From Psammoneis japonica (Eukaryota), in assembly GCA_008632985.1 (NCBI GenBank), contig QPGO01000185.1, forward strand, positions 1 to 64,000: 64,000 nt of DNA. The letters are read 5' to 3'. Under the pieces are notes generated by a model. The model was not told the DNA's origin, searched no databases, and was given only the letters and a program-made list of their open reading frames with translations. Both the position numbers and the translations under genes were made by a program. Numbering within the stretch: position 1 is the first letter of the stretch; every line of letters starts with the position of its first letter. This document shows, in pieces, positions 21,925 through 55,905 of this stretch.

Positions 21925-24900
21925 ATGGATGCTGAGGAGCCTAGCAACGAAACAGAAAGGTGCGAAGATCACTCAATATCACAGCTTATGCCGTTGGAGG
22001 ATGTTGAGAAGATGGAGGATTTCGATATGAAACTGGCACCGCCTGAGTCAAGTCATTTGCCCTCAAGACAAGGGGGGTACGACTACAACAGTAGTCAGGA
22101 GCTTAGCTTCGATAGTCCTGGCCAGAGCTTTAGAGTGAATGGGAGCAACGAAATGGGGTCACCCAGTAGAAGTCAAAGGTCGCATAATAGCGATGCGAAC
22201 AGTCGCCCGGGAGACGATGATCTAGCTGATTTTTGCATCCTGTTTAGAAATCAGGATGCCAATGACAAGGAACGTGCAAGCGTTGGCACTCCAGTCGGTG
22301 GTCATTCGTTCTTACTTATGCAGAACGAGCGGTCTGACGTTGACGGTGGAGGTGGAGGCCTTGATGTTGAATCCTTAGACGACGGTCCCTTCCAGCGGCC
22401 ACAAAGCCTTCAAGCAGACGACGGTAAAACAGACGAGTCCCATGAAGACTCATCGACGCCCGAAGTTGACGATGAGACAGAAGCATCGCCCAGAGCTCCA
22501 ACCAAGAAAGAAGTGTCATCTCAGTCGAGTCCGTCTGCTTGCGACTCTACTAAAGCTTCCGCACAAATCAATGTATCACCATGCTGTGCAAATCCTCAAT
22601 CTCCTGCGGGTTCTGAGCCTGGATCCCCCTCGAGAACGAAGTCTAAAGAGGGATCCTTAGCGAAAGTAGATGGGAAGCAAAGTAAGGTGCGAGGAAAGGA
22701 TCTTCTGTTGAAGGTGGCAAGTCCATCATTATTGACCTTAACTCCGGGCCAAGAAACGCTTGTTTCGCCTGTGGCGAGGGCTTTGGCTTGCCAGAAACGC
22801 GTTCTACCTTGCGGTGGTGGAGGTTCGGGCGATGCGACCAGCTCACCGGTCATCTCGCCTGCACCAGATGTCAGTCCCGTGATTCCGACGCCTGCCCCCG
22901 TTCCAAGGCAGCTTTCCGGACAAACTGCAGAGCAAATTGACAGGAATGACGTGGCGTCAATACTCTCCAAGCTCCACGAGTTATCTCCATGTGTTTCCCC
23001 GGGTGTTTCCCACGGTACAACCGTTGATGGAAACACTACCCTAGCCTTTCCCACTACATTCAGCCCAAGAGCAAAGAAGCTGAAGCCGTCCGTGTCTGCC
23101 AAGGTGCTCCCTCTATCGTCAAAGAAATCTCAAAGTACAGGTGGCGGTCCCCCAGTGGCTTCGAGCCCGGATTCAACCGACCCACCCTCGCACGAAGAGA
23201 CAGGCAAAAGGGGCTCGCAAGGCGTCGGCGATGAGGTGTCTTCCCGTGCTACTCAGAAAGGATCTGCAGTCGAATCGACGGATGCGACTGCCGGTAGGCA
23301 GTCCGGAAAATCCGAGGCAGCTTACACTTCTTCTCAAATGGCGGCGAAAGGAATTTCTACTGCAGCGAATTCTACAGATCCCGATAAAGCTGGCAAGCAG
23401 ACAAGCACATTTGTGCCAGCGGAGGTATCTGAATCAACCCAGAATGACTCCGGGGATTCAGACCAAGTTGTGACGGATACCGATATAGCCGCACCCCTTC
23501 CATCCGAGGATAGAACGCATTCGGAAGCATCGACCTCGGAGACAAGTGCGAAACGCTCTTTGGTTGCAGAGAGAGCGAATGCAGAGGCGAAACCCAAGGC
23601 ATCCGATGCCGATGACTCATATAAATCACCGGCTATTATGGCGGGGGGTGATTGTCCGCAAAACGCAACTGAGAGGAAGGAAACCGATTCGCCTTTGCAT
23701 GAGCATGAAATGGAAGTTGCATCTTCGACTGAGCATGAAGAGCCAGATGAAGGGAGTTTCGTGCAAGACCATTTAGAAGGATCCGGTTTCCCTCAAGATT
23801 CAGATGATCAAGATTCGTCTTCCGATTCAGATGATGAATCGGAAAGCGGCGAGGCTTACTTGCGTCGAGTTAACAAGAGAAGGCGAGCGAATAGGGATCT
23901 AATGAATTCCATATTTGGTTATCCAGCCCAAAGATCGCCACGTGACGCTCAATCGACAAGGGAGGAAAGCTCCATCGACGAATCGCGCTCACCCAAGATC
24001 AAGCCGTTATCAAAGACCCCTGGTATGTTATTTTCAGTCAACAATTCGAGCGATACTCTAAGCTCGGACTCAGAAGAATGCGTATCCGACATCTATGATC
24101 ACCTGTACTCTCTTTACCCCTATCGCGACAAAGAAATCGAGCTACTCTGTAGCTTGATGGAGACATCGATTCGACAGGTGAATGCGTTCAAGTACAGCAG
24201 AACAATATACACTCCAGCTCCCATTTTTGTTTCAGGACCCAGCGGCACTGGAAAGACGTCGGTGGTTCTTGACATTTTGAAGACGTTGAAAAAAGTCAAT
24301 AAAACCCGTGAATCACCCTGGAAGTCGCAGGACAACGCCTCAACTATCCCTTTGATTGGAAGCGCCTACGTGAACTGCGCAACGGTGGCTCCGGGGTCCA
24401 TTGACACAATCGTAGAAAGTGCGTTTGGACAATTGGTTGAAGATGTTCGGAGTCCCGAGGCGCAGAGTGTCCGTCGCCGAGAAAAACAGAAATCGAAAAT
24501 ACCTCGCCGGCGGAAACGTCCTCGTAGTGAAATTGGAAGCGACATGCACGATTCCGACACAGATAGTGAGGGAGACATGGAGGACATGATTGAAGCCGAG
24601 AGAACAAGAAGCACGAAGGGTGTCGAGCTGGCTTCGAAAGGTTTAGAGAGGAAGGCGAAGACTGTGTCTTTGCGGTCTCGTGGTGTAGTTGGTGGAGAGA
24701 GGCAAGTGGATGGAGCGACACGGAAGGTAAAGGAACGAACATCACTGCACGCAGTGCCTATGGCATTTGGCCGTGCTCTGTTGCCTTTCTTTAGAACGGA
24801 CGCACCTTTGACGGAGCCAAGAGGCTGTGGGTTTTTGGTGCTTGACAATGGTGATGCGTTGCTTTCGTTGTCGTCTTCAGCGTCCGAAAGGAACAATTTT

Positions 24901-26230
24901 CTCTCTCAGTTGTTGATCACTCCAAAGATCTTGGGACTCAACCTTACAGTGATTGTAATTACTCGCAGTATCTTGCTTAATTCTTCCCGTAAGTGTGTCG
25001 AGAATGTCGAATGCTCCGTGCAGCTTTTCTCTTTCTGTTTCTGTGAGACTCACAGGTTTTGATTTGGACAAAAAAATGTTTGTGGCACAGGTTTTAACAA
25101 TGCAGTGCCTCCGAGTAGGGGCGTGGGAACAATCAAGCAAGCCATTGGACCGATCCCAGTTCATTTTTCTGCCTATAGGGGGAAGAAGGTTTTCAAAGCA
25201 GTGAGTAAGAGAGAGGAAGATTTCGCTTCTGTTGTTATTGTCAACTGACTGTCTTCTTTTCAACTGCTGTCTGCCTCAGATTCTTAAACAGCCGAAGCTA
25301 AAACAACTGATTATTGGTCTACCCGACCCCGAGAAAGGCACAAAGAATCCTGAGTTCCAAGAACGAGTTTACGACTCATTTCTGGACGTTTTGACCGATT
25401 CTCTCTTAAGCTCGACTCGCGACATTCGGGACATCATAAGAATAGGTCGTTTGTGGCCAACTTACATTGCACCTCTTCAGAGCAGCCGAATTCAGGCGAC
25501 ACTCGAAACCATCCGTTCTAAAGATCAGAGCGGTTGCGCCGGGAGCAGCAGCTCAGATGAGCATATGGACAGCTCAGAAATAAAAAAGAAACTCCTGACT
25601 TTCCTTGATCAAATGATTCTGCCACGGTTGCGGATCCACCTAGAAAGCGGCAGTTTCTTTGTGAAGAACGCCGCACCAGTGTCGCACCGCGGAGGCATCC
25701 AAATGGATGAATCCCCTGTCGGCGACTTGCCCTATCTGAGCAAATGTCTTGTTCTTGCAGCTTTCATCTGCCAGGCAAACAAGCCGGAAAAGGACCACCA
25801 GCTTTTGACAATTCAGAAGCGTGGAACGAGGTCCAAACGAAAGAGAGGTGAAGTAGATGCGGGAAGGGTTGGATCAAGCGCAAGGGAAGAGCAACAGCAG
25901 AATCTGCTCCGTCCTCGTACCTTTGCGCTTGAACGCATGCTTTCTGTGTTTGTAAACATGACGGGGCTGCTCCAAGGTACTTCAAACTTGTTTCTTAGGG
26001 ATCCAGACGCGGGTTTGGAGGGGCTGCTCCGATCCATGGGAAACGATGTGTTCTTTGAAAGCATTTCCCAGCTTCGTGAATTGGGTTATCTTCGAGAAGG
26101 TGGCACGGGCTCAAACGGGAATAGAAAGATCGACCTTTCATCCACGAAATACTGGTGTCCTTTGACAATTGACGAGGCGGAAGAAATGGCCAAGAGCATT
26201 GACTTCCCGATGGACAGGTTCTTGATCTAA
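21925..26230 (+). CDS. ORC5: Origin recognition complex subunit 5 with a long N-terminal low-complexity extension
   Basis: YPYRDKEIELL, Walker A GPSGTGKT, FLVLDNGD, and ORC5 C-terminal motifs LPYLSKCLVLAAFICQAN, RPRTFALERMLSVF, AKSIDFPMDRFL. Introns at about 24989-25090 and 25201-25279. Confidence 0.88.
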
Positions 26231-28855: not shown

Positions 28856-29125
28856 GACCAGATCATCGATGAGAAAGCGAAGGCGATGTCGATCCCTTAG
28901 CTTGCAACGAAGCAGACGGATATCTCGAGAGAACAACATTTACAAACACGGCATCCATATTCCCATTATCGCAACCGTGTCTCATCATAAGACGACTCCT
29001 CGTCAGCACGGATTTTTCAGACACCAGCATTGAAGCCAAGTCCACCCGAAGCACCCTCTCGCACCGAGGTCGAAGAGTCAGGATAAGAAGGCTGCATCGT
29101 GAAGCACAGGACCATCGCCAGCGAA

Positions 29126-32113
29126 CTAGGTCACGAACGTTGGACCCACCAAAGAATCGTTGGCGTTCTTCCAGTGAAGAAAACGTTGTGTTGTCGCGTG
29201 GTCTGATTGTGAGTCTTGAGCGCTACGGTATCCCTGACTATGGCTCGGACGAAGCGTCCATGTAGAGAAGAGCCCCTGTTGCGGGTGCTGTTGTCTTTTT
29301 TTGCTGTCGGTGCTAACATCACAGTCGTCGTTGGCTGTGCCACAAACGCCGTCATTCATTCGAGGTCATTGTCGCTGTTGCTGCTGGCTCTGCGCCCACA
29401 TCTGGCTGCTTTCTTCTTCACAGTTTGAAGCTTCTCCCAGATGGAGCAAATGGCTCCCACTCCATTGTCTGCCTTTGAGTTTCCTTGGGTCACCCGTTGA
29501 TTGTCCTTTGCAACACCTGTGAGGCATTTTGCTTCTTTGGCTTGACAAGTTTGTTGTGCTGTGCTGCCATCTCATTGCGCTCTTCCACCAAATGGAAAAT
29601 GTGCTTGAGTGCCACGTGCCGCAGACTTCAAAACATCACATGCGCGTCCTGGCCATGCGGTGCAATTTTGGGCAGTCTTGCTTGTCATTTTGGCGGTTGG
29701 CTCCATCCAGACATGCACGCTCTTCTTGATTGTGCAACATGTGCAAATGCTTGGGATTGTGGATGTTGTCCAGCACCTTCACGACCTTCCCTTTGAGCTG
29801 GCAATCGATGGCAGCACCAAATGGGTTGTGCCCAGACGTTGATTGCCACACAATCCTGCACTCAGTTTGTCATCTTGAGCAAAATGTGCAGGGAAGTTTC
29901 TCAAAGATGCTTGCTGCTCAAGAATGCCTGCACTGGTTGAGTCCTTTGAGTGAGCATCAACAACTTGTTTGCATTCATGGCGGCTGCTTGAACCTCAGCC
30001 CATGGCACACATGTCGCTGTCATCTGCACAGTCGCCCGAATTTCACGATGCATGCAGTCTGTGAGATGTCCGATGGCGGCTTCAAGACTTTTCACCTTGC
30101 TGAGTGTGTCTCGCTGATGTCCCTGAGTCCCTTGGTCAACACGCCAATCTGGATTTGTTGTTTCTCTTCCACAGAGGTGCGTGTGCTCTTTTGGAAGTTG
30201 ACAGTGTTGCTTGCAATGAAGTCCTCCTTGGCCGTCTTTCCCCGCTCCATGAGCTTGTTGCTGTTGACGCGCAGCACCTTTGCAGAGCCTGCCAGCCAAT
30301 GAACAAGCCAGCCCTGGCATCCATGTGTGTCTCGACAACTTCCTTGTGGTGCACGAGCAATGTCGCAAGCATCGCTGGACAAAAGTTGTTCAAGTGGCCA
30401 CTTGGCAAAAGGGCAGAAATCCCAGCAGGTGAGAACAGGGAGAACACCCAATTGTTTGTTGGATCCAAGTTCTTGGGAGAGTGAGAAAGGAGGCATTTGG
30501 CTTGGGAACACAGACGTCTTGTCCTGGGTTGGCCCATTGGCTCAAACTTTTTCCGGCCATTGCTGCAAACAGCTTCATTGTCCAGCAGCCAAAGACAGCC
30601 GAGTCTCCCTTGAAACCCCAGCTGCCTCTGGCAATGGAGGCCCCTGCACCAAAAAACTGTTGGAAAGAAATGTTGTCAGCAGAGCCCACATGGAAACTGT
30701 GGCTCATGTGCTCCTTTGTCAATCCATTGACCTTGTCCCATGCACTTTCAAGGATGCATGAAACCTTTGCAGTGGCACCACCACTGGCCAAATTTTTGAA
30801 CTTGGGAAACACAAAGTTGGCTGTGCAATCATCATCTGCTGGAGTTGTTTCCAGGTTCCCACTGGCTGCAACTGTGCATGCTGCAAGAGCGTGGCACAGG
30901 CAAGCCAAGAAACTGTTGGCACCCACGTGCCAAGTCGTGAATCCGTTCTTTGATGTCTTTGTTTCTCGCCAGTTGCTTTCAAGTTGCTCTTGCTGTGGGC
31001 TCCATTTTGTCACCTCCCACACACACGTGCCCACCTCAGCTGTTCACCCAATGGCATGACAAAACCTGGTGGCAATGACACGATCACAGCAGCAGCGACC
31101 CTCCTTCATGAGGACATGCTCCACAGCTTCCAAAAGGTGTCGATGCAGGCCCACAGCAGAATCCTCTGGAGAGCCCCCTGCGCTCAATTGCAGCCATTCC
31201 AGCCCACATTTTCAACAATTTGTTGAGCTTGTCATGATGTTTGCTTTTCTTGCACAGCACTCCTGTTGGGAGCTTGTGCTGTTTGAGATCCGTGCAAACG
31301 ATCTGGGCTTCCAGTGGGTGCCTTTCTGCTTGCCATCCTTTTCCATCTTGTGCTCCATGAGAAAAGCACAAAATTGCTGCATCATTTTGCTGCAGCTCAG
31401 CATGGTTGTGACAGCTCCTTGCAAGTGCTTTTGCTGCAACTCGTGGAGGAGCGGGTGGCCCGACTTTCTCGCAAACACGTCGAAAGCTGCAGCGGCAGTC
31501 TTGCAGCCATCTTCAGTGTGATCAGCCTTCAGCTTCATCTTGCTGCACACCTCCTTGCTGATGTCATCTTCCTGCAGCAGCTCTGCTTCAATGCTTTCTT
31601 TCAGCTTTTCAGCCGCTCTGAGCTCTTTCTCCCTTGCGGCATGGATTCTTTGCAAACAGGGCTGCAGGTGCTGTGTTTGGTGCCTCGTCTGCAGCAAGGG
31701 CACTCTCCCCGGCAGCTCCAATGGCCTTGTTGTCACTGGTGCTCCCGCCATCAGTGCTGGCTGTTGCGCCATCAGCTGCACCTTAAGTGGGGGGGGACCC
31801 GCTCAAGAGACACGGCATGTTTGCAGCTGTTCAACCTGCCACTGTGACTGCTGAGCTGCTGTTGGTGTGACAGTCTGGTGTTTGGTTTGTTGTTGTGCAT
31901 TTGTGCCGAAGCAATGGCAGCTGTCCATCGTGCATGGTTGCGGTCGCGGTCACGGCTTGTTGCTTGTCGCTGGTGCAGGCCAGCAACAATGCGGCCGCGT
32001 GCACACGGGAGGGGAACGACGTGCGACGCACGGACATTGTGCGTCGCGGTTGGCGTCGGGAGGGGCGTCCCTCGGGGGACGCTCCGCGCCCCCCAAAAAA
32101 AATTTCTGTCCAT
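29126..32113 (-). mobile_element. Decayed Crypton-type tyrosine-recombinase element
   Basis: The minus strand reads HAIG*TAEV..WRETKTSK..CLCHALAAC..FVFP..HMSHSFHVGSAD..IARGSW..VFGC..AGKSLSQW. This is the R / HxxR / W / Y tyrosine-recombinase pattern once CG and TA changes are reverted. Element ends are uncertain. Confidence 0.8.
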
Positions 32114-32320
32114 TTCCGTTGCTTACGATCGCGCATTACAGAGCGCCTGCTTCAGAGTAACCCGTTTAGGGCAAGCGCGTACAAGACTTCAGACATGCAG
32201 ACAACGCAGACGACTGGGAGCTCGAGCAAGCAAGAAGCAAGCAGTCGAAGACCCAAGCTCGGGTTAGTTGTTGGAGTAGCATTCACATGGCATAGGAAAC
32301 GTCTATGGTCCAATCTGAAG

Positions 32321-33926
32321 ATGGTCGACCGCGTAACACCTTCATCAAGTTCTCGTCGGGGACTTCCTGGCTTCTTACGCCGAAATCCGAGGACCCCTGA
32401 TGAAAATATGCCCACAACTATAACTGGAGGCACAGCCGCAGCATCGTCGTCCAACGGCAGCCAGCACCAGACCACACCGGAGGATGAAGTCACAACGGCA
32501 GTAAAGAATGATATTGAAGAGGACGAAGCCGAACATCCATCTGTAGACGAAGTGGCGGCTCCTCCGGACAGTACCACTTCCTCCAACAAGAAGGAAGCTG
32601 AACATACCCTCGAGCAAACAGGGTTGCCCACGGAACCAGCAAACCCGGAATTGGAACGCAAAGCGAGCTACAAGGAAACAGTTTTTGAAAGAACCATTAA
32701 AGCCGAAGTTGTCAATATGAGCGACTTGCGACGGCTTGGCTGGAATGGAATACCAGTAAGTGATGAGAGAATTGCACCTACCTTGCTATGTTGCTGTTAT
32801 TCTCATTTTCCCCTTTTGCTATTACAACGATGGCCTTTCGCAGCCGCAGCACAGGGCACAAGCATGGAAAATCTTGCTAGGATACCTTCCGGTGAATTCA
32901 GTAAGGAGGCCTCAAACTCTACAAAGAAAACGCGCCGAATACTGCGATGCAATTGCCCAGCATTATGAAATTGATGACAACAGTCGAACTCAGCAAGAAC
33001 AGGAGACTTTGAGACAAGTGCTCGTTGACGTGCCCCGCACTGCGCCAGAGGTTGGTCTTTTTCGAAACGACCGTATACGACGGTGTCTTTCGCGTCTCTT
33101 GTATATTTGGGCAATGCGTCATCCAGCGTCGAGCTACGTGCAGGGTATTAATGACATTGCAACTCCGCTTGTAGCTGTCTTTTTGAGTAGTTATTTTGAT
33201 GGCGTCGATGTTCTAGATGGGGAGATAATGGATGAAGTATCGGATGAAATATTGGACGAGGTGGAAGCTGACTCTTATTGGTGCTTGACAAATCTTCTTG
33301 CTGGAATTCAGGACCATTACACCGCGGACCAGCCAGGAATACAGAGGATGGTTCTACGACTGGAAGAGCTGGTTACCCGTATTGACGCTGATCTCACAGA
33401 ACATCTTCGCAACGTCGGGGTAGAGTTCATGCAGTTCTCTTTCAAATGGATGAATTGTCTGCTACTCAGAGAGTTCAACCTTCCTTGTGTCATGCGTTTG
33501 TGGGATACCTACATTAGCGAATCGGAGGGGGATTCGAGAACTTTCACGTTTATGTTGTGCAGCGTTTCTCTGCCAGTTCAGCGGACAGCTACAAAGCATG
33601 GAATTCGATGAGCTGTTTGGTTTCATGCAGGTGAGTAAGCTTGATTTCGACACATAAACAGTCTTGATTTGCCTCTTTCACTTTTTGCTCACGTCGCTGA
33701 CCATCTTGGCAATCTAGCAAATGCCGACCGACGATTGGGGTGATACCGAGATTGAGATATTATTGAGCCAAGCGTAAGTTGGCGACACAGTGCTTCTTTA
33801 CCTAAATCTGTTCTTTTCTTCAAAAGTTTTGACGACTAAACGCAATTGTGTTCTCTCTTTTGTAGGTACGTGTTAAGCACCCTTTTCGGTGGGAGTGACG
33901 CCCATCTCAATAACCAGCGAGCCTAG
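32321..33926 (+). CDS. TBC1D22: TBC-domain Rab GTPase-activating protein (TBC1D22/Gyp1 type)
   Basis: LRRLGWNGIP, WKILLGYLP, QVLVDVPRT, IWAMRHPASSYVQGIND, QFSFKWMNCLLLREF, RLWDTY. Introns at about 32756-32843, 33631-33717 and 33774-33865. Two 1-bp slips near 33530-33560. Confidence 0.92.
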
Positions 33927-40681: not shown

Positions 40682-41781
40682 CCTAAAGTTTGTTAATAAT
40701 TAAGTTGGGAATTGAAATAGAAATAATATCTGCAGTGCTAATTCGAAGAAGATGGGCTACAAGATAAGTGTTCTCTACGACTGCTCCAGCGTTAGAGAAT
40801 AGTTGGGATTCACCGGTAAGCAAGGTTAGAGGTTGGCGGAGCACCAACTGTCGGAAGGTCGCGCAACACGGCCCTTTTTGAACCAAACAGTCACTCGTAC
40901 TTTTTGTCGGCGATGCCTCCTGTGATGCACGAAAGCCACTAGCAGGAGGGATCCCCAGCAGTCATCTCTTCTCGGCTCGGCTTCTTTGCAAACAAGATGA
41001 CCTTGAAACACTGGGGGTCACAGCCTTGCTGCGCTGAATGGCACAGCTCTGATGTGGTGGCGGGGCGAAGATGATGCAGAACTCAATTTCCTCACCATTC
41101 AATTGACAGAACCATGCTGAGTTGATGCATGAAGACATGTGTTGTCCATTTCATATTTCATCAAAGCTTTCTCTGCTTGCAGCATGTGAGAGTCATGTGA
41201 TTTTTGATGCTCTCACTGTTTCTTGTGTGTGAAGAGAGAAGTTTTGCAATCAAACACAGGACAAAAGATCTGCGCCAAAAATCTTCCACAAGCAATGCTT
41301 GCATTGACCAAGCCATGACACAAGGTCCACAATGTTCATCAGGTTCTTTGTGAGCACTGCAAGGGCTGCTCTTTTTGTCAAAATGAAGCTGTTGCATGAT
41401 CACAAAGACACTGTGCAGGTCATTGAATGAACACACAATGTGAAGCATTGCCCAGGCGAGTTGGACAGCAAGAATGGCTGCCTTTTGTTTTGTCTGCAAC
41501 AACCAAAGCTGTTCATGTTTGTTTGCAGTCTTTTTGCTGGTGCATCCTTTGTTGGTGCATCTTGCATCTTGTTGCTTCATCTCCTTGTTCCTTTGCTTGC
41601 AGGAAATGGTGGAGATCAGTCAGAGTTGTTTCAGTCCATTTGTGTGCACCCAGGCCTGTCAAATCAAATTGCAGCACAAGGTGCACCACACAGCACAATC
41701 TTTTGAACCAAAGGGCTGCTCCATGCCACTGGCACACACTGCAGACATGCATCTTGCAACAAACACAAGTTTCTCCATCAT

Positions 41782-42826
41782 GGCCACCCCTGAATGACCA
41801 GAGCACACAAGTGCCACAGCAAACAATCATCACCAGACTCAACTGTGCTGGATTCTTGGCATCATGCAAGCTGGCACAAACAACAAGTGAGTGCAGCAAG
41901 TCCTGTGCCCATTGCTCATTTGTGCTGTTCTCTGTCTCTCAGGATCTCAGGATTCTTCTTTTGCTCAAATGTGGTCACGCTGATGATCTCATGGAGCCTG
42001 TGTTGTTGGGCAAGCCTGATTAGATGGCCTTGTCAAAGGAAGTGTGTCTCTCCCCACCAGTGCAGCACCCTCTCCATTTTGGCAGACAAAACAAAGGACC
42101 TTTGTCTTCATGAGTCACTGCCATTGGCTGGATGTCTTTTGCCCACTGGCATCTCACTCTCAGTGCTTGTGCTGGATGTGGGCTCTGCCAGCCAAGAGAG
42201 CAAGTTTGGCTCACCCACCACAGGAGAAGTTTTTTTTGCAATGACTTGCTTTTTTTCTTGTTTGCACTGAACAGATGGATGCATGTTGTTCTTGCCACCA
42301 TCGGCCACCCCTGAATGACCAGAGCACACAAGTGCCACAGCAAACAATCATCACCAGACTCAACTGTGCTGGATTCTTGGCATCATGCAAGCTGGCACAA
42401 ACAACAAGTGAGTGCAGCAAGTCCTGTGCCCATTGCTCATTTGTGCTGTTCTCTGTCTCTCAGGATCTCAGGATTCTTCTTTTGCTCAAATGTGGTCACG
42501 CTGATGATCTCATGGAGCCTGTGTTGTTGGGCAAGCCTGATTAGATGGCCTTGTCAAAGGAAGTGTGTCTCTCCCCACCAGTGCAGCACCCTCTCCATTT
42601 TGGCAGACAAAACAAAGGACCTTTGTCTTCATGAGTCACTGCCATCAGCTGGATGTCTTTTGCCCACTGGCATCTCACTCTCAGTGCTTGTGCTGGATGT
42701 GGGCTCTGCCAGCCAAGAGAGCAAGTTTGTGGCTCACCCACCACAGGGAGAAGTTTTTTTTGCAATGACTTGCTTTTTTTCTTGTTTGCACTGAACAGAT
42801 GGATGCATGTTGTTCTTGCCACCATC
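41782..42826. repeat. Near-perfect tandem duplication, 521-bp period
   Basis: 41782-42302 matches 42303-42826 except for a TG/CA dinucleotide and two small indels. Confidence 0.95.
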
Positions 42827-42989
42827 AACCTTGGTCCTTTGGAGTTTTCAAATGGCTTTCTTTGACCCCAGCCACAAAGCAGTCTTTGCAGGCCTTGACA
42901 AATGCATGCTCTTGACAGATGTTGGGCACTTGCCACATGAAACAATGACAATCTGCAACTCCCATTTTTTTTATGAATCAATTGCAGGC

Positions 42990-43430
42990 AGTCTGGCCCA
43001 TCAACACAAAGTCACACTGTTTGAAGCACCAAGAAAAAAAAACAATGCAACGTCCATTTGGGCTCAGCAAAGGGCAACCAATGGTGCCACTGCTGGGCCC
43101 AAGCTCAGGGTGCTGTTGCAGCCACCAAGCTGCAATGGACAAGCAAACCTTTGTGATGCTGTGTGGGAAGCCACCCCAGATCATGCACTTGTGCCACACA
43201 GCAGTCTGGGCAGTCATTGTGATGGCAACAATGATGAGTCCCTTGACACTCAGCTTGGCAATCATGTTCTCATCAATGAGATGAAGAGCAGCTTTGGTGG
43301 GAAGGTCCAGCACAAGTCCTTGCATCTGGTGTGCCTTGAGAGCACAAGGATGCTCCTTGCAAATTGCCTGGCTGAGGTTGTCAATCTTGACAGAGACATC
43401 AATGAGCCAGTCAAAAGCATTTGTCATTGC
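42990..43430 (-). pseudogene. Decayed copy 1 of unknown repeat-borne ORF family A
   Basis: AFDWLIDVSVKIDNLSQAICKEHP..LPTKAALHLIDE..QTAVWHKCMIWG..TKVCLSIAAWWL, homologous to copies at 48.8 and 52.3 kb. Confidence 0.7.
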
Positions 43431-46400
43431 ACACAGTGCAGGTGCTGTGGTCAGACTGTTTGTGGATGATGGGTCAGACCCACTTTCATTGGACAACCAA
43501 ACAGATCTCTTCTCTGAGATCTGCTTCTCACTCTTTCTTGCTGGTGCACACATGTCATCACTGTTGCCAGTTTGTGGAGAGCTCTGCATCATTGTTTGTT
43601 GACTTGGCTGTCTCTGCTCTGACATGTCACAGCCTTGCATTGTGCCACATTCTTCTGTGTTGTGATCTCCACTTTGTTTCTTTGTTTGGTCTGTGGTCTG
43701 ATCAAACCCACTCCAAGTTTTTGTTCCTGCAACTGTTTTTTTTCTCTCCAAACTGCAACAGTTTTTGGGTCACAGGACAATGCTGGCCCTTTGCATGTTG
43801 CAGGAACATCTTTTTTGCACACCTCCACCATGGCACCTTGTCAAGGAGAAAAGAGTCCCATTGACACCCTTGTTAAGATGAAAGTCACTTTTCAGGCACA
43901 CCCCCATCTGCAGATGGAAGCCACCAAGCACCAAACAGAAGAACTTGCAGCAAAATGGTCATTGAGATGGATCAGTTTGTTTGATGACAAGAAACACACC
44001 CAAGCCAAGGATCACATTTGTGAGCCACTGCAGGGCTGTGTTCTAAAGCTCATTGCCCCACATTGGAGACCCCTCTGATGTCTCATCTGTTGCATTGCTT
44101 TGCAGCCCCCCCCCCCCCCTTGAAGAAGGTGAAAGCTCCAGCAGGCAACAAATCTCCATCTTGTCCATGTCACATGGCAAGATCCACCTTGCTCTCAAGA
44201 TGCATCAGCTGCAATCATTGTGGGGGTCAGTGTGGTGCATGTTCGCTGTGAACCTGATGTGAAACACAACCAGAGGAGGGGTTAGAGAGAGTTTTCTGAT
44301 CAATGTTTTCCACTGAAATGCTCTGCATCTGCACCCACAGTGGTGCCTTCCCCACCAAATTGAGCTCTGTTGATGTTGATGCATTGTGAGCTGCAACTGG
44401 CAGCATCCAAAACACCTTCAGTGGGTGGCTCTTTGACTGCCAAGAAACAGGCAACATTCACATCTTTGAGCTGCATCTGTTCAATCCAGATGCATGGCCT
44501 TTTCTAAATGTTCCACAAATGATTTGATCAGAAGGATGTCACAAACAACTTCAGAACTCATTTGCCCCATTCAATGGTGGCAACCCCTCCCCCAACAAGT
44601 CCTTTGGATGGAACAGACCACCTCATGCTGGCTGATGGCTCTCTTTTTGTGATCAATCTGATGCCCAACCACAAAGCTTTGCTTTGTGAATCAAGTTTGT
44701 GCAATGATGATTTGCCACATGGCACTCTTGCCAGTGGCATCTTGAGACTTCCAGTGGTGTGCTGCAAGGCTGACCATGGCTGCTGTTGTGGCATTCACCC
44801 ACTTTGGTGTTTCCTTCACAGCCATGGTGGTGGTTCTTGGGGTTTTGCCACTGGCAACAACAAGCTGAACAACCCACCACAACAAATGCATTTCCATTGC
44901 CTTTGGCCACCACACACAATTCACAAGCACCGGCTGCACTCCAACATGCTGTTTCCCAAGAATGGCACAGGCGGCATTGCACTGATGTTGCTTTTTGTCA
45001 TGGCAGCTGCTACAATGCACCAAAGTCCAAGCAGACCTTGTTTCAAGTTCATCTGGCCTCTGTGATGAAGCACCTGGTCCAATGGACAGTCATCCAAAAC
45101 AAGGGAATGAAGCTGTTGATTGCCAACTGCTTTGTTGTGTTCAAAGATTTTTTGCAACTTGGTGCACCCACACTTGACATTGACTCCTTCTCTTGGATGA
45201 CAAGAGGGAGATGGCCATTTGCATCAAGAACATGAAGCAGTGCAATGTTCTCAACATGAGTGGTGACATGTGACAAATGCCTCAAACACAAGCACACTGA
45301 GAAGCAGATTGCAGAGACACTTTCCCTCATGTGTTGAGAGCAACACTTTTTGTTTTTCTCAGTCAACCAGACAGCCCTTTGTCTGTTGATTGCAATGGTG
45401 CTCATGCCCCGTGTCTGAGATGTGTGATTTTCCACAGGCAATGGATGGCAAGCTCATGACAAATGCCTCACAACAAAGTGGCAAGAATGCTGCAGGACAG
45501 ACAAAAGTGCCAGTCGCTCTTTCAGTCATCTGGGAGCTGGAAGGGCTCTTGTTGCCAAAATTGTTGAACTTGGAAATCAGGCCAACTTGCTTTTTGGTGC
45601 AAATGTGGTCTTCTTGTTTGCAGCCTGAGCACTGTCAGGGGGGAGGGGCATGTTTTGTACAGCACTTCACTTCTTTTCTCAGTGCATCCAAAAAGTGTCC
45701 TTCAGGCAAATGTTTCTTTGGAGTTCAAGCCATTCTTGTTTGAGCTGCTGCAGCTGTGATTGCTGGTGTCACATTTTGTTGGGTTCTTGTTGCAGACTCT
45801 GTGTCAGTCTTGCATGTGGATGGCTTGGAAGAAGCAGATGAGGAGATGCAGCTTCAAAGCTTGGGGCATGTGCCCAAAACCAAAGTGGCAGATGCTGCCT
45901 CACTAGAAAATCAGGTGGTGTTGGTTTCTCTGCACTGGCTGCTGCATCTGCAACATTTGTTGGCCTTGCAGTGTTGCGGCCACTGGTCAGCTGAGCACAG
46001 AGCAGATGCAAGCAAGAATGATGAAGGGTGTTCATTTTGCTTCCACTGGTCACCTGGGCAATGCAGTCAACAAGAATTTGCACCAGGAACTGAGTGAGAC
46101 ATCATGCCCTTCTGCTCAGGACCATGCCAATTTCCCCATTCCTCAAGCTTCCCCAGCTTCAACAAAGCATTGCATTTAAACAGAAAATGTGCCACTTCTT
46201 GTCAAACTTGCTGTGCCAGCAATCTTGTGGCCAGCATTTTTTGCTTGTCAAGCTTCAGTTGATCCTTTTCCAGTGGGTCCCATGAAGGCAGTGCTGCTCC
46301 ACATTTCCTGACAGATGGCCACAGGCCCTGCAATCATTGGACAACACCAACTGGCTGCATCTTGTGTGGGATGCCATGGCAAAAGAAGATCTGGCGCAGA

Positions 46401-47053
46401 TTTTGTGTCAGAGAGTTGTGCCACCATGGCTGCAATCTTGGCATGGCAGGCTTGAAAGATGCCATTGGGAGCACATTGTTGTGGAATGCCTGCTTGAGAC
46501 AAGGCCACTGTGCTCTGACCATGAAGCCATGTTACGTTTGAGCAATCAAAATTGTGGGGGGGTTCTGCAAAGTGTGTGGGGCACATTCTCAGATCCCCTG
46601 ATGTCACCAGTGCTGCCTCCATGTTTTGCCAATGCCCCCCACTTCTTGCTCTCTCAGTGCCAACACATCTGTCACTTGTCTCAGCTGCAAAGATGCACGC
46701 ACCACTTGGGCCTCCACAGTTGCTTGTGGTCAACCTTGTTGTCCACTTCATCAACACAATCATCAACCACATGTCAGACTTTTGGTGTCCACAGCTGTTC
46801 ATTGCATCCCATCTCAGGGCAGTGACCACCGTTCACAAATGCCATTTGAAAACATCTTGAATGGAGGAGGTGACTCTTGAGATGTGTTGCACACTTGCAA
46901 TGCATTTTTGGCTCCTCTTGGGATGGCACAGAGGACTCCCACTCCTCTTGTGTGTGCACAACATTCCTGTCAAGATGGAGCACAAAACTCACAAGACCAT
47001 GTTCCTCACAGTGTCATCTTCTGAGTGAGCTCCATTGTCCAGCTCAGACAACC

Positions 47054-47107
47054 TTCAGGTCCACACCAAACAGAAAATGATTCAGGTCCACACCAAACAG
47101 AAAATGA
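47054..47107. repeat. 27-bp tandem repeat, 2 copies
   Basis: (ttcaggtccacaccaaacagaaaatga)x2. Confidence 0.9.
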
Positions 47108-48537
47108 ATTGCCAAATTTTTTCTTGTCCACAGTGAGAGCTCATGCAATGGAAGAAAAGGAGCAAAGAACACAACTGTCAGCATCAACAGACTCCACAGC
47201 CATGCACTCCAGTGCAGTGGCAACCAAGGTGCAGTCTCTGACAACTGCTGCTCAAGACTTCAATGCACTCCTCTTCTTGTGGCTCTCTGGCTCCTCACCA
47301 CAATCAAAACAGCAGAGTGATTCATTGATCCTGGCAATGATTGATGGCAAGGCACTGTCCCACAGACACACAAACATGCACACATGGCCAACCCTCAATC
47401 AGTGCAGTCTTCAAAAAAGAAAGGTCATGAAAGCCATCTTTTCCTGCTTGACAATGGCAGCACTGTCCCTCTTGATGACCACATGCTGGTCAGAGCAGCC
47501 TTTGAGAATCATCCCCTCCTCACTGTCATGGCCATCTTTTTTCCATGCTGTCTTTTCTCCCAATCCCTGTCACTGCAGACACATGCTTTGACCAAAGCAT
47601 TTGGTGTTGTGGGGCCCATTGAAACATCATTTCTGCACAACTCTTTGTCTTTTTGAACCCCCTGGCAACTTGGATCTAAAGCAAACCAATCTCAGCATTC
47701 AAAATCTCATGACAACTCTAAAATTGAGAGAGCAGTTTAAGAGCACACACTGTTTTGGGAACACAAAGCATCAAGGAGCACAAAAGAGGAACCTTTCCAA
47801 AATGCTTGATGTGCAAAGACTCACTTCTCTTGATGCATCTTCACATTTGGCAGCTTCAACAACCTGATCTGCATTTTCATGGCATGTGCCACAAACTGTG
47901 ACACCCAAGCAACCAGCAAGTTGACAAATGCATTGTCAGAGCTGTTGCCAAACTCTCTCAGACATTGAACAAGATTGGAAAAGATTTTGCAGCATTGGCC
48001 TGATCAAGTTGCTTCTTGACACTTTCACAAGCTGCTTGAGCAGCAACAAGCTCTGCATGCAAGCATGGCATGTGTTGGCCAGTGCTTTGTGCAGAACAAA
48101 CTGGGCCATCTAAGTCATTGCTGTTCACAATGCTGTTCTTGGAAGGGGATCAAGCATGAGACAACAGCGAAAGATCAGAGCTCCATTGATTTGGTTGACA
48201 GAATGTGCGCATTGGCATCTCACGGCATCTGGCACATGAGCTGCAACTCACACACACCCCAAAGCCAGTCTGTTCTGATGGACCTGCCATGTCACACCCA
48301 TCACAAGCAAGGTTGTTCTCCCTGGGAAGAACATGATGCAATTGTCCATCCCTTCTGTTGGGGAGTGCCTTGTGCCTTTAAACAAGCTGCAATTGTTTTT
48401 CCATGCACATCAGAAAAACACCCCTGACAGTCTGACATTTTTCCTGTCACAGATGAAGTCAAAAATGGGAGCCCACGAAACACATGCCACTGCATCAGTT
48501 CTGCATCCTGGCATTGTGAACAAACAATTTTGCACAG

Positions 48538-48568
48538 TCAGGGTTGGGGTTTAGGGTTTGGGTCAGGG
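48538..48568 (+). repeat. Degenerate interstitial telomere-like (TTAGGG)5 array
   Basis: TCAGGG TTGGGG T TTAGGG TTTGGG TCAGGG. Confidence 0.7.
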
Positions 48569-48829
48569 AGCGGAGCTTTTAGCAAAGCGCCAGTTTGGGA
48601 TGACATTGAAAGAAGGGGCGACTGAGCAAGCAAGCTTCCATCCAAAAAGTCAACCGCACAGTGGGACCAAGTTAATCTGTGACAAGTTCGCACCCCACAT
48701 GTGTGGTGCCATGCTTGATGCAGCCCTCACAGAGCCGGCAAGCTTTGCACTGTCAGTTTCCAGCATGAAGACTTGGGAAGGGCTTGCCCTCTGCAAAGCA
48801 TCTCTTTGCATGTCTTGGCCAAACACAGC

Positions 48830-49100
48830 AAGGCTGGCAAACAAGCTTCCCACTTTCTCCCATTCCATTCATTTTGGCACATGTGAATGTGCTGCAGACT
48901 TGTGCAAAGACCAATGTGATGATGATGAAGAGAACAGCTCCCTCCAAGAAAAAGTCAAACCTCGCGGGAGGGGCTTTCATGTTGATGATTCTGATGCTTT
49001 CGACTGGGTGATTGACATCTCAATTGAAATTGACAACCTCTGCCAGGTGATGCAAAAGGAGCAACCTGGCACTCTGGGGGAGCTCCACAAACAAGGCTTG
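48830..49100 (+). pseudogene. Decayed copy 2 of ORF family A
   Basis: KLPTFSHSIHFGTCECAADLCKDQCDDDEE..DAFDWVIDISIEIDNLCQVMQKEQPG. Confidence 0.7.
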
Positions 49101-50814
49101 CCAAGAAGACAACAAACACCATGGTCCTTGCATCATTTCTTGGTCAATGAAGCATTGTTTGTAGAAGGCAAATAACGTGTGTGTTGTGTCCCATGTTTTG
49201 AGCACCAAACTTGTCTATGTGCAAGAAACAGCAAGAGTGTGAGACATCCAAAACAGATTGAAATGCATGAAATGCACAACAGAGGCAGGAACATGTGTGG
49301 TGTGACTTGAAGCTTGCTCAAGAACAACATGGCATTTGTGTGTGACAAGCAGAGAAAGCTTTGATGAGATCTGAAATGGTTGCACTGCACACCTTCATGC
49401 CCAAATCTAATGCAGTTCCATCAATCAAATGGCCAGGAATTGCATCTGCATCATCTTTGCCCCACCACAGCTTTAGAACCACACCATTCAGTGAGGCAAG
49501 ATGGCAATTTTTCATGTTCATTGCTGGCCAAAAGGAAAAGGGAAAAAAGGAGGGGATTCAACCATCCAACACACACAAAAATTGACCATGCAAGCTGGGC
49601 CAGAGATTCATTGGCTTTTTCTTTGCAGTCTGGGGTGGTTGCTGCAGGTGCAAAAGGTGGGTGCACATTGCAACTTGTTCAGGGTGACCATTCACTCAAA
49701 GGCTGCATTTAGGAAGGGCCAGGGAGAAGAAAAATGCACAAGCTTGGCTTGCTTCAGACCCTGGCATGTTGTGCATCACTGTGCAGAGAGTCTTGTTGCA
49801 GCCAGGCACATCTCACAGGAGGTCTCATGCTCGGTGTGCTCCTCAATGACTCTTGGACCCAACCTCACTCAGAGCTTCTTGATGTCAACAACAAGTTGAC
49901 TCACAGTGCTGACAAAGAAGCTTGAGGAGCAGGCTTGAATGCCATTTTGCATCTCTGTGGTGTGTGTGGGAAGGCACCAACAGGAGCAGCTCCTGCCAGC
50001 TCCAGCTTTGGCTTGGGGGGTCTTTGCAGCCATGGTGTCTGCCTCAAGCTGGTGCTCTCAAACACAAGGGGTGCTGTGATGTGTGGGGTTGGGCAGCCCA
50101 ACCAGCTTGCCTGCTGCACTCCTTGCTCATGGCACACAGCACTGTCATGGCTGCAACAAGGGTGATTTTGTGGTTGGGCTGGTGTTTTGGAGGTCTGGGT
50201 GCACCCTGGGAAGCCAAAGAAGGGCTCAGCATTGTGCTGCCAGTGCCAGAAACATGCTCTGCCCTGTGACTTGCAGCTCTGGGAGCTCACAACCTCAAGT
50301 TTGACATCTCAGTTGGCAGCTCAGCAAACAGCCAGTCTTGACCACAGCTTGGTGTGTGGGTGGCAGGTGGCACTGTTGCCATTGGGTTTACAAATGCACA
50401 ACACACCTGTGGCACCAACAAGACCTCAGCAGTCTTGCCTGACTTACAAAGCTTTGACGATGACAAGCTTTCACTTTCACTTTCACTTCATCAGTGCAGT
50501 TGGCATTTTTACTTGCAAGCCAAAAAAGTCGAGATCGGCACTTTGAACGGTTCTGGAGGCGGCAGCTGACGTGGGGCCATTGGGGAGATGCCGAGTGTGT
50601 GTTTTTGCGCGCGAAGCGTGCAAAGCACACTTGTCTTAGCCCAAAATTTCCGGTGGAGAAAAAGCGGGCATCAAGGTTTCACAGGTGGTGTTCCTGGGCC
50701 CACGCACTGAGACAGTAAAAAGAGACGACTGACTGCACAGTGAGTGGTGATTGGGGTTTGGTGTGACCCCAATTCAAAAAAACTCAAATGGGCGTGTGTG
50801 TGTGTGTGTGTGTG

Positions 50815-50832
50815 NNNNNNNNNNNNNNNNNN
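50815..50832. other. Assembly gap (N run) flanked by (TG)n and poly-G
   Basis: 18 N characters. Confidence 0.99.
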
Positions 50833-52329
50833 GGGGGGGGGCAGAAAAGTTTTGCATGAGCTGTTTTGTCAGTGCTCACAGGATGGCCTGGGTTGCTGTG
50901 GATTTTCTCAATGGAAGCCAAGTGGCCACAGCACAAGAGAAAACAATTTTGTTTTTGAGCATCTGATGGACAAAGTCTGGGCACTCAGACAGCTGTCCAC
51001 ATCTCCTCAGCTCCGGCAAGAAGCAGCAGGCTCCAATGGCAGCATTGTGCGTGCTCATGCACTCATGCGCAAACAAGCCTCAAGCTGCAAGTCATGAGAA
51101 AAAGCCACTCAACCTCCCAACCAGCTGCAGAGCAGTCAAATCATGCCACTTGAGAGTCCAAGGTTCAAAACAAGTTTGGCACATCTGCTCTCTTTTTGTT
51201 TTGTGTGCTCAAGAGCCTTTGCTTTGTTCTCCCCACAACAAGTTTTTGGCATGTGAAAGGAGGCTGCAAATTCCAGATGGGTTGATTTTTCTCTTTGGTG
51301 CAAAGGGTGTGCATTGCATGTTTTGATTGGATGCCCACGCAGAGATCTGAAAACCAGCATTGTTGCAAGCATTGGAAGCAGAGAGAGAGAAAACCAACCA
51401 ATTGACACCTCAAAATGAACATCTAAATGCTGCATGAGTGGTCAACTGGTGCAGAAATGCAATGGTGATTTTGCACTTGACATCCTGTTTTACCATGTCA
51501 ATTTTGCTTGTGCCCAAAAACTCTGCAGCATTGACCACTCAGTGTGTCTGCCAGCTTTCTTTGTGCCAAAGTGGAAATTTTAATTGGAGGGGAGCTCGTC
51601 AACCATTTGGCTGTCTTTGTGCCAAAACAGAAATTTGAATTGGGGGATGCTTGTCATCAACCAGCCACGAGCATGAAATCTAAGACTGCACCCCCCTCCC
51701 GGCTCCTCCTGCCCCCCATCCCTTGCTCATGTCTTGGTCAGTGAAGAACAGTGGGATTGCACTGTGCCGTTGGTGTGCAGAAAACCCTTCTGACGGCTCT
51801 CTCATTTGCTCTTTGGGAAGCAAATGACAAAGCTCCCATGTTTGAACAATTGGAAAAATGTAAAAGACAAGAAGATGTGCAAATGTGCAGCTGTGTTGTT
51901 TGCTGTCATTTTGTTGTGTTGCACATCATCTCAACAAGTGTGCTTGCTTGTGTTTTTCATCAGCAAGTGTCGCGTCAACTCTGATCTCAAAAAGAAGCAA
52001 GATCACAACACAGTCAGGGAACTCAAGTGAGCTGGAGACCTCAAGGGTGCAGTCAAGAGGGCAAAACAGAGCACACCAGCCAGATGTGCACAACAGCTCA
52101 GCAAGAGTCCAAAACTTGAGCATGCCAGGCAATCTGTGGAGTGCCTGGATGGCCTTTGACTCCTGGCAAGGAAATGCACCAAGCCTGCTGCATGTGCTGC
52201 TGCTGATGGAAGCATGGACATTTGCTGAGGCTTGTTCGCCATTGTCATGAAGGGATCATCTGCCAACAGTGCAAGGGCAGCAGCAATGAATGCTTGCAAA
52301 GTGCACAATGCAGTGCACAGGCATTCCCA

Positions 52330-52970
52330 CAAGCCTCAACCTGGACAAACTTCCTGCTTTCTCCCATTCCACTCATTTTGGCACATGTGAGTGTGCTGCA
52401 GACTTGTGCAAAGACCAAAATGATGATGATGAAGAGAGCAGCACACTCGGAAAGTCCAAGCTCATCAAGAAGAGGGGCTTCAGTGCTGATGACTCCAATG
52501 CTTTCAACAGTGTCATTGACATCTCTGTCAAAATTGACAACCTTTGCAAGGTGATTCACAAGGAGCATCCTGGAACTCCAGGAGAGCACCAGGAGCAAGG
52601 ACTTGCACCAGACTTTCCTGCCAAAATTGTCCTTCATCTCATTGATGAGAGCCTCACCCAGCCAAGCTTCAAGGGGTTTGTTGTTGACATCATGATGAAT
52701 CTCCAGCCAGACACCCAGACTGCTGTGTGGCGCAAGTGCATCTGGGGCAGCTTCACATGCACCAAGGTTTGCTCATCCATTGCAGCTTGGTGGTTGCCCG
52801 AGTGTGTTGAGCTTGGGCTCAGCAGCAGCCACTGTTGTTTGCCCTTTGAAAAAGTTGCATGGAACTGTTTCGTTGGGCATTTGGAGGATCTTTGGCAATT
52901 TCATTGCAACTTTGCATTGGGCTGGGTTCTTGCCTGCGATGGATCCATCAAACCACCCATGGAGGTTTAA
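52330..52970 (+). pseudogene. Decayed copy 3 of ORF family A
   Basis: KLPAFSHSTHFGTCECAADLCKDQNDDDEE..VIDISVKIDNLCKVIHKEHPG..FPAKIVLHLIDE..QTAVWRKCIWGSFTCTKVCSSIAAWWLPE. Confidence 0.7.
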
Positions 52971-54119
52971 GATCATTGTTCTGCATGACAAGTGCCAGGC
53001 TTTCATCAAGAACATGTTCATCAAGGCCTGAAGTGACTGCTTTGGGATCAAGACATGTGGGTGCATGCAACTGACCAACATTGACAGCTGCAAGAGCATC
53101 ACTTGCCTCGCTGTCAACCTCAAACACATTTGGCAGTTTTTTCTCAAATCGCATTTTCAGAGGAAAGGAACAGCAAAAGCAAATTCCTCACATGTGACAA
53201 GGGGGGCAAGACACTGAGGGTTTGTTTGGATGACAGTGTTTGAGGGAGAGACACAATCATTGAAACACACACATCCACTTTGTCATTCAATGGTTTTTTC
53301 CCCACAAAATGGAGGTGATCACTGCTTGTCATGTGCAAAAATCTTGAAAACTTTGGAGAAGAGCCACGCTGGAACAAACTGCAAGTGTTGTGCTGCACTG
53401 GCCCGGCATGATGGGAGAACTAAATGCACATCAAATTGAGGCATGCGCACAACAAGTGCACAGCAGCACAATGTCGGACAGATGACAGTCACACATTTGT
53501 TGTGATTTGCGCGACAAATTGCCGTTGACGCCAATGATGATGATGACATTTTCTCAAGCTCTCACAGGATGACTTTGCAGTGGGCACTTGTCACATTGAT
53601 CAACTGCACTGTTTGAAACACAAACATGCAAAGAAAGTCCCCCTGATGAAGTCTCAATCATTCAACAATGAATGCATGACAGTGACAGGTCGGAAAACAG
53701 AGCTCAGCATTGGTGTGATGTTTTGCTTTTGAACGGAGGTTGATCTTGGGGACTTTCATGACTGAACGCGTTCACAAACTTGGCAAACCAAATGTCCACA
53801 ATGACAAAAGACTCTGGGACACGTCACTGTCATTGCGACAATGCACCACCGCCATGTCACTGATTTTTGGCGATGATGCATGCAGCACGCACGAAGTTTC
53901 CAGCACAAAAAAAAAAAACAGGAAATTCCAATTGTCTTGCCATGATCAGCTTGTTGTGCAAATGCCTCATGACTCTTTGTTTGCCAGAATGGATTAGAAC
54001 GGATTTTTTTGCACGGTTGGACGCGTGCAGATTTTTTTTGCCACACGACGCACTGCATGTTGGCAATGCCAAGAGCCGCAATGGCGTTGTCTTCACCATT
54101 GTCACAGAGGACACATGCT

Positions 54120-55833: not shown

Positions 55834-55905
55834 TGGGCTGTAGCGCAGGGGTAGCGCGACTGTTTCGCATACAGTAGGTCGGGTGTTCGAATCATCCCAG
55901 CTCCA
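55834..55905 (+). tRNA. tRNA-Ala(CGC)
   Basis: Cloverleaf: D arm GCGC/GCGC, anticodon arm ACTGT-TTCGCAT-ACAGT, T arm GGGTG-TTCGAAT-CATCC, G3:U70 Ala identity pair, A73, downstream T5 terminator. Position 1 is T opposite C72. Confidence 0.88.

Follow-up and report, generated by a model that had tools for sequence, protein, structure and literature searches.

What becomes of a tyrosine recombinase whose gene can no longer spell tyrosine? The question is raised by a stretch of 64,000 nucleotides from Psammoneis japonica (NCBI GenBank assembly GCA_008632985.1, contig QPGO01000185.1, positions 1 to 64,000; hereafter the window), whose minus strand carries, between about 29272 and 32136, a broken gene related to tyrosine recombinases in a block nearly devoid of TA dinucleotides. 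In this copy the codons for two catalytic arginines and for the nucleophilic tyrosine read stop, histidine and cysteine. We consider it quite probable that the locus is a dead single-gene transposon of the Crypton kind, lying between two diatom host genes, that was hit by two context-specific transition processes.

Catalytic codons and protein family of the broken frame

The minus-strand frame 31928-30393 was read through, with X at its three TGA codons, to give a protein of 512 residues (P0001). A word-index homolog search with P0001 returned no match, because the erased sequence has too few exact words in common with its relatives. Against Pfam, in a scan that covered this frame and no other, P0001 matched no family at E ≤ 10, and against PDB sequences it gave chance matches only. 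A full HMMER pass over 1.84 billion representative sequences identified 100 proteins at E ≤ 1e-3, 55 of them at ≤ 1e-10 and 9 at ≤ 1e-30. The best match, P0002 (861 residues), has an E-value of 2.8e-76 and 43% identity to P0001; by tblastn it aligns to 31589-30411 (E 1.1e-77, 40% identity), and the family occurs nowhere else in the window. One family member is named from Skeletonema menzelii, and a metagenome scan for relatives yielded one 1.2-kb locus (L001), too short to show architecture.

That the family is one of tyrosine recombinases had been proposed from the sequence alone, and the proposal is supported by the 100-protein family, by profile matches and by a predicted fold. Phage_integrase (PF00589) is matched below threshold in 9 of 61 homologs (best E 5.3e-5; for P0017 the score is 22.6 bits, the cut-off being 27.1), and other Pfam families are each common to at most two of the 61. 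A profile of the homolog alignment compared with PDB sequences gave only coiled-coil noise, from the C-terminal half. The fold was tested on a homolog, P0009, and not on the broken copy. The AlphaFold2 model of P0009, made from a 61-row alignment, has a mean predicted local distance difference test score of 91.3, and its top Foldseek matches in the PDB are Cre, lambda integrase, Tn1549 integrase and Flp, with E-values down to 4.1e-6. With VIA-align the model gave Z-scores of 17.1 for Cre, 16.4 for Flp, 14.4 for XerH and 14.1 for the DNA-binding domain of Ndc10, and all 50 of the 50 rows were tyrosine recombinases or known derivatives.

The features of the frame are given below. Columns are those of a 17-row alignment of P0001 with 16 homologs, picked as the best-scoring long ones, and the family hidden Markov model (HMM) was built without the window's own row.

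30498..31544, minus strand: core-binding (Cre-like N-terminal) and tyrosine-recombinase catalytic domain, in one frame (family HMM, 31544-30498, E 2.7e-88)
31044..31046, minus strand: box I arginine site, now TGA in HAIG-TGA-TAEV; column Arg in 16/16; apparent C-to-T at CpG from CGA
30957..30959, minus strand: conserved lysine (K324, invariant column), kept; from the alignment and a frame-derived coordinate
30690..30701, minus strand: HxxR box, now H-S-F-H (CAC AGT TTC CAT); from the codons and the 16-homolog alignment
30618..30620, minus strand: conserved tryptophan (W437, invariant, in ARGxW), kept; from the alignment
30585..30587, minus strand: nucleophile tyrosine site, now TGC (after TTT GGC, 30593-30585); column Tyr in 16/16; apparent A-to-G at TpA from TAC
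31212..31214, minus strand: second in-frame TGA, in a poorly aligned stretch (residues ~213-250)
31803..31805, minus strand: in-frame TGA in the unaligned N-terminal leader, from the frame read-through

The three altered codons lie on the minus strand where the sequence-only reading had placed them, and they share one frame. Its claim that all three had been erased is borne out by the homologs, in which the corresponding columns are Arg in 16/16, Arg in 15/16 and Tyr in 16/16. At box I the homologs read HAVGRGGEV. The histidine of the HxxR box is kept (CAC, 30701-30699; H410, an invariant column), and the Arg column of the same box, occupied by Cys in the one exceptional homolog (P0004), here holds CAT (30692-30690), consistent with G-to-A at CpG from CGT. 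The three codons are each a single CpG or TpA transition away from CGA, CGT and TAC, respectively. The series R, K, HxxR, W, Y thus reads stop, Lys, His, His, Trp, Cys in this copy, the TGA and the His codon being 115 codons apart and the CAT and the TGC 35. The copy derives from the family, but with its catalytic series broken it cannot be active. We also tried a local double frameshift at 31251-31180; the alternative frame (E 0.27) was not significant.

Extent and direction of the TpA and CpG changes

Between about 29320 and 32120 a single TA dinucleotide remains, at 31784; this count, too, had been made from the letters alone, and our recount agrees with it. The flanking TA dinucleotides lie at 29314 and 32124, just inside the element ends at 29272 and 32136. 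In the window's normal parts TA makes up 3.95% of dinucleotides, with an observed-to-expected ratio (o/e) of 0.59, and at that rate ~111 TA are expected in 2807 bp, so that the probability of finding one or none is ~8e-47. The TA o/e is 0.01-0.02 within the element, as compared to 0.59 in the normal parts and ~0.6 in the flanking genes, and CG, whose o/e is 1.0 in the normal parts, is depleted in the block as well. The zone can be summarized as follows, the three ratios being those of 29320-32120.

29316..32123, no strand: TA-erased zone; 1 TA vs ~111 expected; o/e of CG 0.48, TG 1.65, CA 1.82

Every Tyr codon starts with TA, and the inference drawn from this at the outset, that the erasure of TA removes Tyr, holds as a logical necessity: complete TA erasure deletes every Tyr codon. 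The translated frame contains 0% Tyr, as compared to 1.9-3.9% in eight homologs, while Cys stands at 5.3% (0.8-2.5% in the homologs) and Gln at 7.5% (2.5-3.8%). Three of the 10 Tyr-majority columns fall in a badly aligned stretch (residues 214-236); the other seven hold five Cys (TGY), one His (CAC) and one Phe. Of the 10 Arg-majority columns, three are likewise in this badly aligned stretch, and the remaining seven comprise three Arg (CGA, CGT and AGA) and the four codons TGA, CAT, TGC and TGC. The loss of Arg is not a necessity in the way that the loss of Tyr is, since about half of the alignable conserved Arg columns survive (3/7 keep Arg).

The direction of change can be read from a second part of the window, where an island of ~500 bp with normal composition separates erased blocks and contains an intact tRNA-Ala(CGC) gene (55834-55905). 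Erased copies of the gene and its flanks lie at 56046-56235 and 56489-56567; the locus and these copies may together be a tRNA-derived repeat. Changes were polarised in three alignments: the tRNA-Ala gene against each of its two erased copies, and the normal segment 55721-55794 against the erased segment 54960-55034. The 14 TA of the normal copies became 9 CA, 2 TG, 1 CG and 1 TT, with 1 kept, and the 18 CG became 8 CA, 4 TG, 1 CT and 1 GG, with 4 kept. TG and CA themselves were kept in 16/17 and 22/26 cases in the same alignments. These comparisons and the Tyr-majority columns (5/7 Cys, 1/7 His) uphold the idea that the catalytic codons carry the same signature as the block around them. Eight of 10 polarisable Tyr or Arg changes are coding-strand deaminations and 17 of 23 changes in the tRNA copies end as CA, samples too small for a claim of strand bias.

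The same composition recurs in three further blocks of the window, at 1-4500, 41001-55500 and 56001-57000, with a TA o/e of ~0.03 and a CG o/e of 0.03-0.5. Adding the element brings the total to 22.9 kb, or ~36% of the window, at a combined TA o/e of 0.04 and CG o/e of 0.23. The sequence-only reading had described a solitary insertion; the element is indeed the family's only locus in the window by tblastn, but it is not the only erased block. None of 18 stop-to-stop open reading frames (ORFs) from the three other erased blocks matched a Pfam family. One of these blocks contains a tandem duplication of ~530 bp (41775-42302 and 42295-42826, 98.7% identity), which is younger than the erasure, its copies having hardly diverged since. 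The letters of the window include 18 N.

The element, its copies and its host

The ends of the element were placed where contigs of other copies, assembled from k-mers of a public sequencing run (X1), stop matching, at 29271/29272 and at 32136; both are loose ends. The first estimate of its extent, 29126 to 32113, has to be revised at both sides: 29126 lies outside, because TA is back at 29314 and the other-copy contigs break at 29271/29272, and the upper end moves to 32124-32136. The C-terminal pieces listed here were found with an HMM of the family's C-terminal half.

29272..32136, minus strand: whole element, a dead single-gene Crypton-like transposon copy of ~2865 bp (contig break points, TA-free zone inside)
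31937..32136, minus strand: CpG-rich 5' terminal region, CG kept (30 CG in 31872-32136)
30334..30468, minus strand: start of the C-terminal region in a shifted frame, first frameshift (C-terminal HMM positions 13-56, E 7.4e-10)
30094..30322, minus strand: C-terminal region continued, second frame change (HMM positions 60-136, E 4.9e-7)
29689..29845, minus strand: C-terminal region, weak colinear match (HMM positions 252-297, E 0.0056)
29400..29553, minus strand: C-terminal end, third frame change, weak colinear match (HMM positions 312-365, E 0.054)

The first frame change agrees with the tblastn search, in which residues 494-534 of P0002 match in another frame. A single colinear family protein fills 31589-29400 of the 2865-bp element and no second gene was found in it. 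The whole ~860-residue protein is represented, including the C-terminal region that is conserved among the homologs and that the HMM can trace in the window, but its reading is interrupted by no fewer than three frameshifts and by three TGA codons in frame. No terminal inverted repeats, long terminal repeats or long direct repeats beyond chance were found in the element. The hexamer ATGGAC occurs at 32113-32108 and at 29261-29256, which is within chance expectation. The 5' terminal region contains, at 32023-32047, an inverted repeat of perfect 9-7-9 form, a candidate site for the recombinase that we offer as a lead only; Markov simulations yielded repeats of this type in 44 of 300 runs for the whole element and in 17 of 2000 for the terminal 200 bp, a region picked afterwards.

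Further X1 contigs are 90-99% alike, and in places along the stretch the word depths add up to 142-282; the variant contigs and the raised depth indicate that a few related copies exist. In one X1 contig 29300 is followed directly by 29429, with 128 bases missing between them, so another copy has a 128-bp insertion or deletion in the C-terminal or 3' region. Among the listed contigs none spans across the element as an empty site would, which is not evidence that such a site is absent. Of 36 differing letters listed for the variant contigs, which are short and make a small sample, 17 fall inside the element: nine are CpG versus TpG or CpA, two form the adjacent pair 30803+30804 (TG versus CA) and six are of other kinds. 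Directly adjoining the element is a separate repeat of 410 bp (28862-29271), into which the first estimate's start at 29126 falls. A 2805-nt contig of a second run, X2, includes a copy 96.6% identical to it. The repeat is normal in TA content, and over it the word depth climbs to 168-282.

Two host genes were recognized in the window, ORC5 (21925-26230) and a RabGAP-TBC gene (32760-33611). The best named matches of the RabGAP protein are all diatoms (Grammatophora, Thalassiosira, Stephanocyclus, Cylindrotheca, Nitzschia and Amphora, 71-77% identity), and the host is therefore a diatom. ORC5 appears to be split over two ORFs, an AAA_16 part (21925-25062) and a part with the ORC5 lid and C-terminus (25232-26230), probably with an intron between them. 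Within the RabGAP-TBC gene an X2 contig skips 88 bases with GT..AG ends (32755-32844), at the site where the ORFs 31895-32968 and 32760-33611 overlap. One public sample contains the stretch, and no RNA sample is listed for it. Run X2 is listed as 'DNA?', and the spliced 88-nt intron shows that it behaves like RNA. On the element, X2 contigs cover just 29242-29580 and a short piece near 31877-31897, evidence neither way on expression.

The class of the element was judged from its architecture, its host and its look-alikes. A language-model search with P0002 returned oomycete and diatom clusters, followed by NDC10_II, GCR1_C, DUF3435, Phage_integrase and DUF3504, and GCR1_C, Ndc10 and DUF3504 are described as Crypton-derived (Kojima and Jurka 2011, PMC3212892). 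Pfam scans of 16 and then 61 homologs gave no match to GCR1_C. The Crypton assignment made from the letters alone agrees with a single gene, the family's conserved C-terminal region, no long terminal or terminal inverted repeats, and look-alikes of oomycete, diatom, NDC10_II, GCR1_C and DUF3504 type. Terminal direct repeats (TATGG) were not found. By architecture and host, the element is consistent with the Crypton type but not proven to belong to it.

Explanations, significance and known systems

If the locus is a dead Crypton-kind transposon, its intact gene would have encoded a protein of ~860 residues, in which a Cre-like tyrosine recombinase of two domains precedes a coiled coil and a C-terminal domain peculiar to the family. 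If active copies behaved as Cryptons do, they would be excised as circles and insert again through strand exchange mediated by tyrosine. Two transition processes would then have acted on the copy, their limits agreeing with the ends of the element to ~15-45 bp. Change of TpA to TpG or CpA would have run to saturation, and change of CpG to TpG or CpA would have removed about half of the CpG. As a result Tyr codons would have turned into Cys or His, the nucleophile TAC to TGC included, and the two CGN-coded catalytic Arg into stop (TGA) and His (CAT), with at least three frameshifts completing the wreck. A host defence by which mobile or silenced DNA is marked would be the likely cause; in marked sequence, TpA adenines would be deaminated enzymatically, as has been proposed for the chlorarachniophyte Bigelowiella natans, and methylated CpG cytosines would be deaminated too.

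Several observations weigh against this account. The ancestral codons are judged from homologs, and the nearest intact relative is just 43-46% identical. Neither a short matching direct repeat nor TATGG was found at 29272 and 32136, and the ends are placed by contig break points only. The 410-bp duplicate is not TA-depleted, which suggests that duplication alone is not the trigger. Some changes at conserved columns are outside the signature, such as Asp to Gly at 30617 and 30923, and indicate that ordinary divergence is mixed in, just as the frameshifts show that point changes are not the copy's only lesions. The variant copies differ mainly at CpG and mostly share their TA outcomes, and TA erasure may thus largely predate the split of the copies.

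Four other explanations were considered. Modified bases in silenced DNA might have been miscalled in long-read sequencing and fixed in the assembly as a loss of TA and CG. Such an artefact would fit two positions, 30284 and 31658, at which the window has CA but the single X1 contig covering the site has CG, and the library type of run X1 is not on record; the two mismatches could also reflect recent CpG decay, heterozygosity or assembly error at a methylated CpG. But k-mer contigs of X1 lie on 29242-31330 and 31413-33500 and repeat the erased sequence with just these two differences in the listed pieces, at a word depth of 66-70 on the element and 59-61 on the flanks, which corresponds to a single copy. 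The erased sequence is thus present in the reads, although X1 may be the sample behind the window, in which case the support is at the level of reads and is not independent. The intact tRNA island within erased DNA also speaks for real sequence, and the frameshifts and the Tyr-to-Cys/His pattern are less cleanly explained by miscalls; we regard an artefact as very improbable. Nor do we give much credit to an old pseudogene drifting under genome-wide TA avoidance and CpG decay, with no targeted process. The TA o/e of 0.59 in the normal parts of the window already points to some avoidance, but the fall to 0.01-0.02 inside the element takes place within tens of bases at its edges, outside it CG has an o/e of 1.0, and the protein is still 40-46% identical to intact relatives (E 1e-76), so its divergence is modest while the loss of TA is complete.

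An integrated virus fragment of giant-virus or phaeovirus type, carrying a Crypton- or Ndc10-like recombinase, is the least improbable of the four, though still unlikely. It draws on the fact that the hypermutated regions of B. natans are integrated viruses (10.64898/2026.01.13.699255). Here, however, the erased block contains a single gene and spans no more than 2.9 kb, with host genes on either side, and the look-alikes form clusters from cellular organisms (oomycete, diatom, fungal and plant). When IMG/VR viral contigs were searched for patterns taken from the family alignment, a scan of limited sensitivity, 0 of 28 matches were confirmed. A domesticated host gene of the DUF3504 or Ndc10 kind, having lost catalysis under selection, would account for the Lys, His and Trp kept here, and Crypton-derived domains without catalytic residues are known (PMC3212892). 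That possibility is hard to credit at all in view of three in-frame TGA codons, at least three frameshifts, a frame with 0% Tyr and a composition common to non-coding erased blocks. The explanation we retain is the dead Crypton-kind transposon.

The element itself is ordinary. What is unusual is to see this signature in a diatom, at saturation and together with a loss of CpG. It is conceivable, though we lean slightly against it, that diatoms have a targeted, saturating defence that rewrites TpA and CpG, the two self-complementary steps from pyrimidine to purine, in mobile DNA with edges sharp to tens of bases. Under such a defence TpA would be changed by adenine deamination and CpG by deamination of methyl-cytosine or by RID/DNMT4-like deamination, both yielding TpG or CpA. 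If this is true, the locus would be the first case of TpA hypermutation beyond the chlorarachniophyte, and confirmation of an active defence in diatoms would extend TpA-directed hypermutation to an ecologically dominant algal group. By the genetic code, no Tyr codon and no TAA or TAG would survive, so that the tyrosine-nucleophile recombinases of Crypton, DIRS and Ngaro elements would be disarmed with certainty, and long TGA-only pseudo-ORFs would be left as a recognisable footprint. A composition filter (TA o/e <0.1, TG and CA near 2) could then mark silenced mobile DNA and correct gene calls. The defence would also suggest a possible function for the ADAT-like deaminases of diatoms and for their RID-related DNMT4 enzymes, whose function is given as unknown (PMC9998398). 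The locus is among the clearest records of the mutational process: because its active site (R, K, HxxR, W, Y) is well understood, the direction of each lesion can be told, a short element between normal genes makes targeting edges measurable, and erased copies, having no TA and hence no Tyr codons, cannot revert.

Among known recombinases, both domains of the P0009 model align with Cre of phage P1 (root-mean-square deviation 3.3 A, 259/317 residues), and the order R..K..HxxR..W..Y is the same in the family and in Cre. The active-site residues of Cre are R173/K201/H289/R292/W315/Y324, and the spacing in the family (Arg to Lys 29, Arg to Trp 24, Trp to Tyr 11) is close to that of Cre. The differences are a sequence identity of ~12% and, in this eukaryotic family, an extra coiled coil and C-terminal domain. 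As regards the mutational process, fungal repeat-induced point mutation (RIP) changes C to T mainly at CpA and hence raises TpA. The two are alike as context-specific transition storms on repeated or mobile DNA with sharp edges; here, in contrast, TpA is erased and CpA enriched, and a 96.6% identical 410-bp duplicate adjoining the element is untouched. RIP does not fit as the cause, because it raises the very dinucleotide that has been erased.

Among mobile elements the nearest are the CryptonS elements, which occur in oomycetes and one diatom (Phaeodactylum tricornutum), encode a recombinase with a conserved C-terminal region as their sole enzyme, and end in terminal direct repeats of 5-6 bp, mostly TATGG (Kojima and Jurka 2011, PMC3212892). 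Judged by that published description, the present element resembles them in its single gene for a tyrosine recombinase with a C-terminal region conserved in its own family, its lack of terminal inverted or long direct repeats, its apparently low copy number and its stramenopile host. As to differences, TATGG-type terminal repeats were not found in it, and it is a dead copy. Domesticated Crypton recombinases (DUF3504 genes, Ndc10/Cbf2) share the fold, with a Z-score of 14.1 for Ndc10, and the loss of catalytic residues; theirs are intact, conserved genes, whereas this copy carries stops and frameshifts.

The closest likeness to the signature itself is with B. natans. According to the preprint, mutations in mutation-accumulation lines of this alga are almost exclusively TpA to TpG or CpA in two integrated viral regions, coding sequences low in TpA are enriched for transposase and reverse-transcriptase domains, and the enzyme put forward is an adenine deaminase of the ADAT2 kind (Mettrop et al., bioRxiv 10.64898/2026.01.13.699255). 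Both systems show change of TpA to TpG or CpA, an excess of TpG and CpA, and confinement to foreign or mobile DNA with normal flanks. They differ in host, a chlorarachniophyte there and a diatom here, and in background TpA (6.0% there, 3.95% here). The TpA o/e is 0.45 in the nucleocytoplasmic large DNA virus (NCLDV) region of B. natans, whereas the process is saturated here, at 0.02-0.04, and affects ~36% of the window. CpG is also depleted here (o/e 0.23-0.49) and goes unmentioned in that text. A literature search on diatoms, TpA, RIP, hypermutation, transposable elements and genome defense returned nothing on TpA erasure in diatoms, and the B. natans preprint is the one close precedent found for a TpA-to-TpG/CpA signature.

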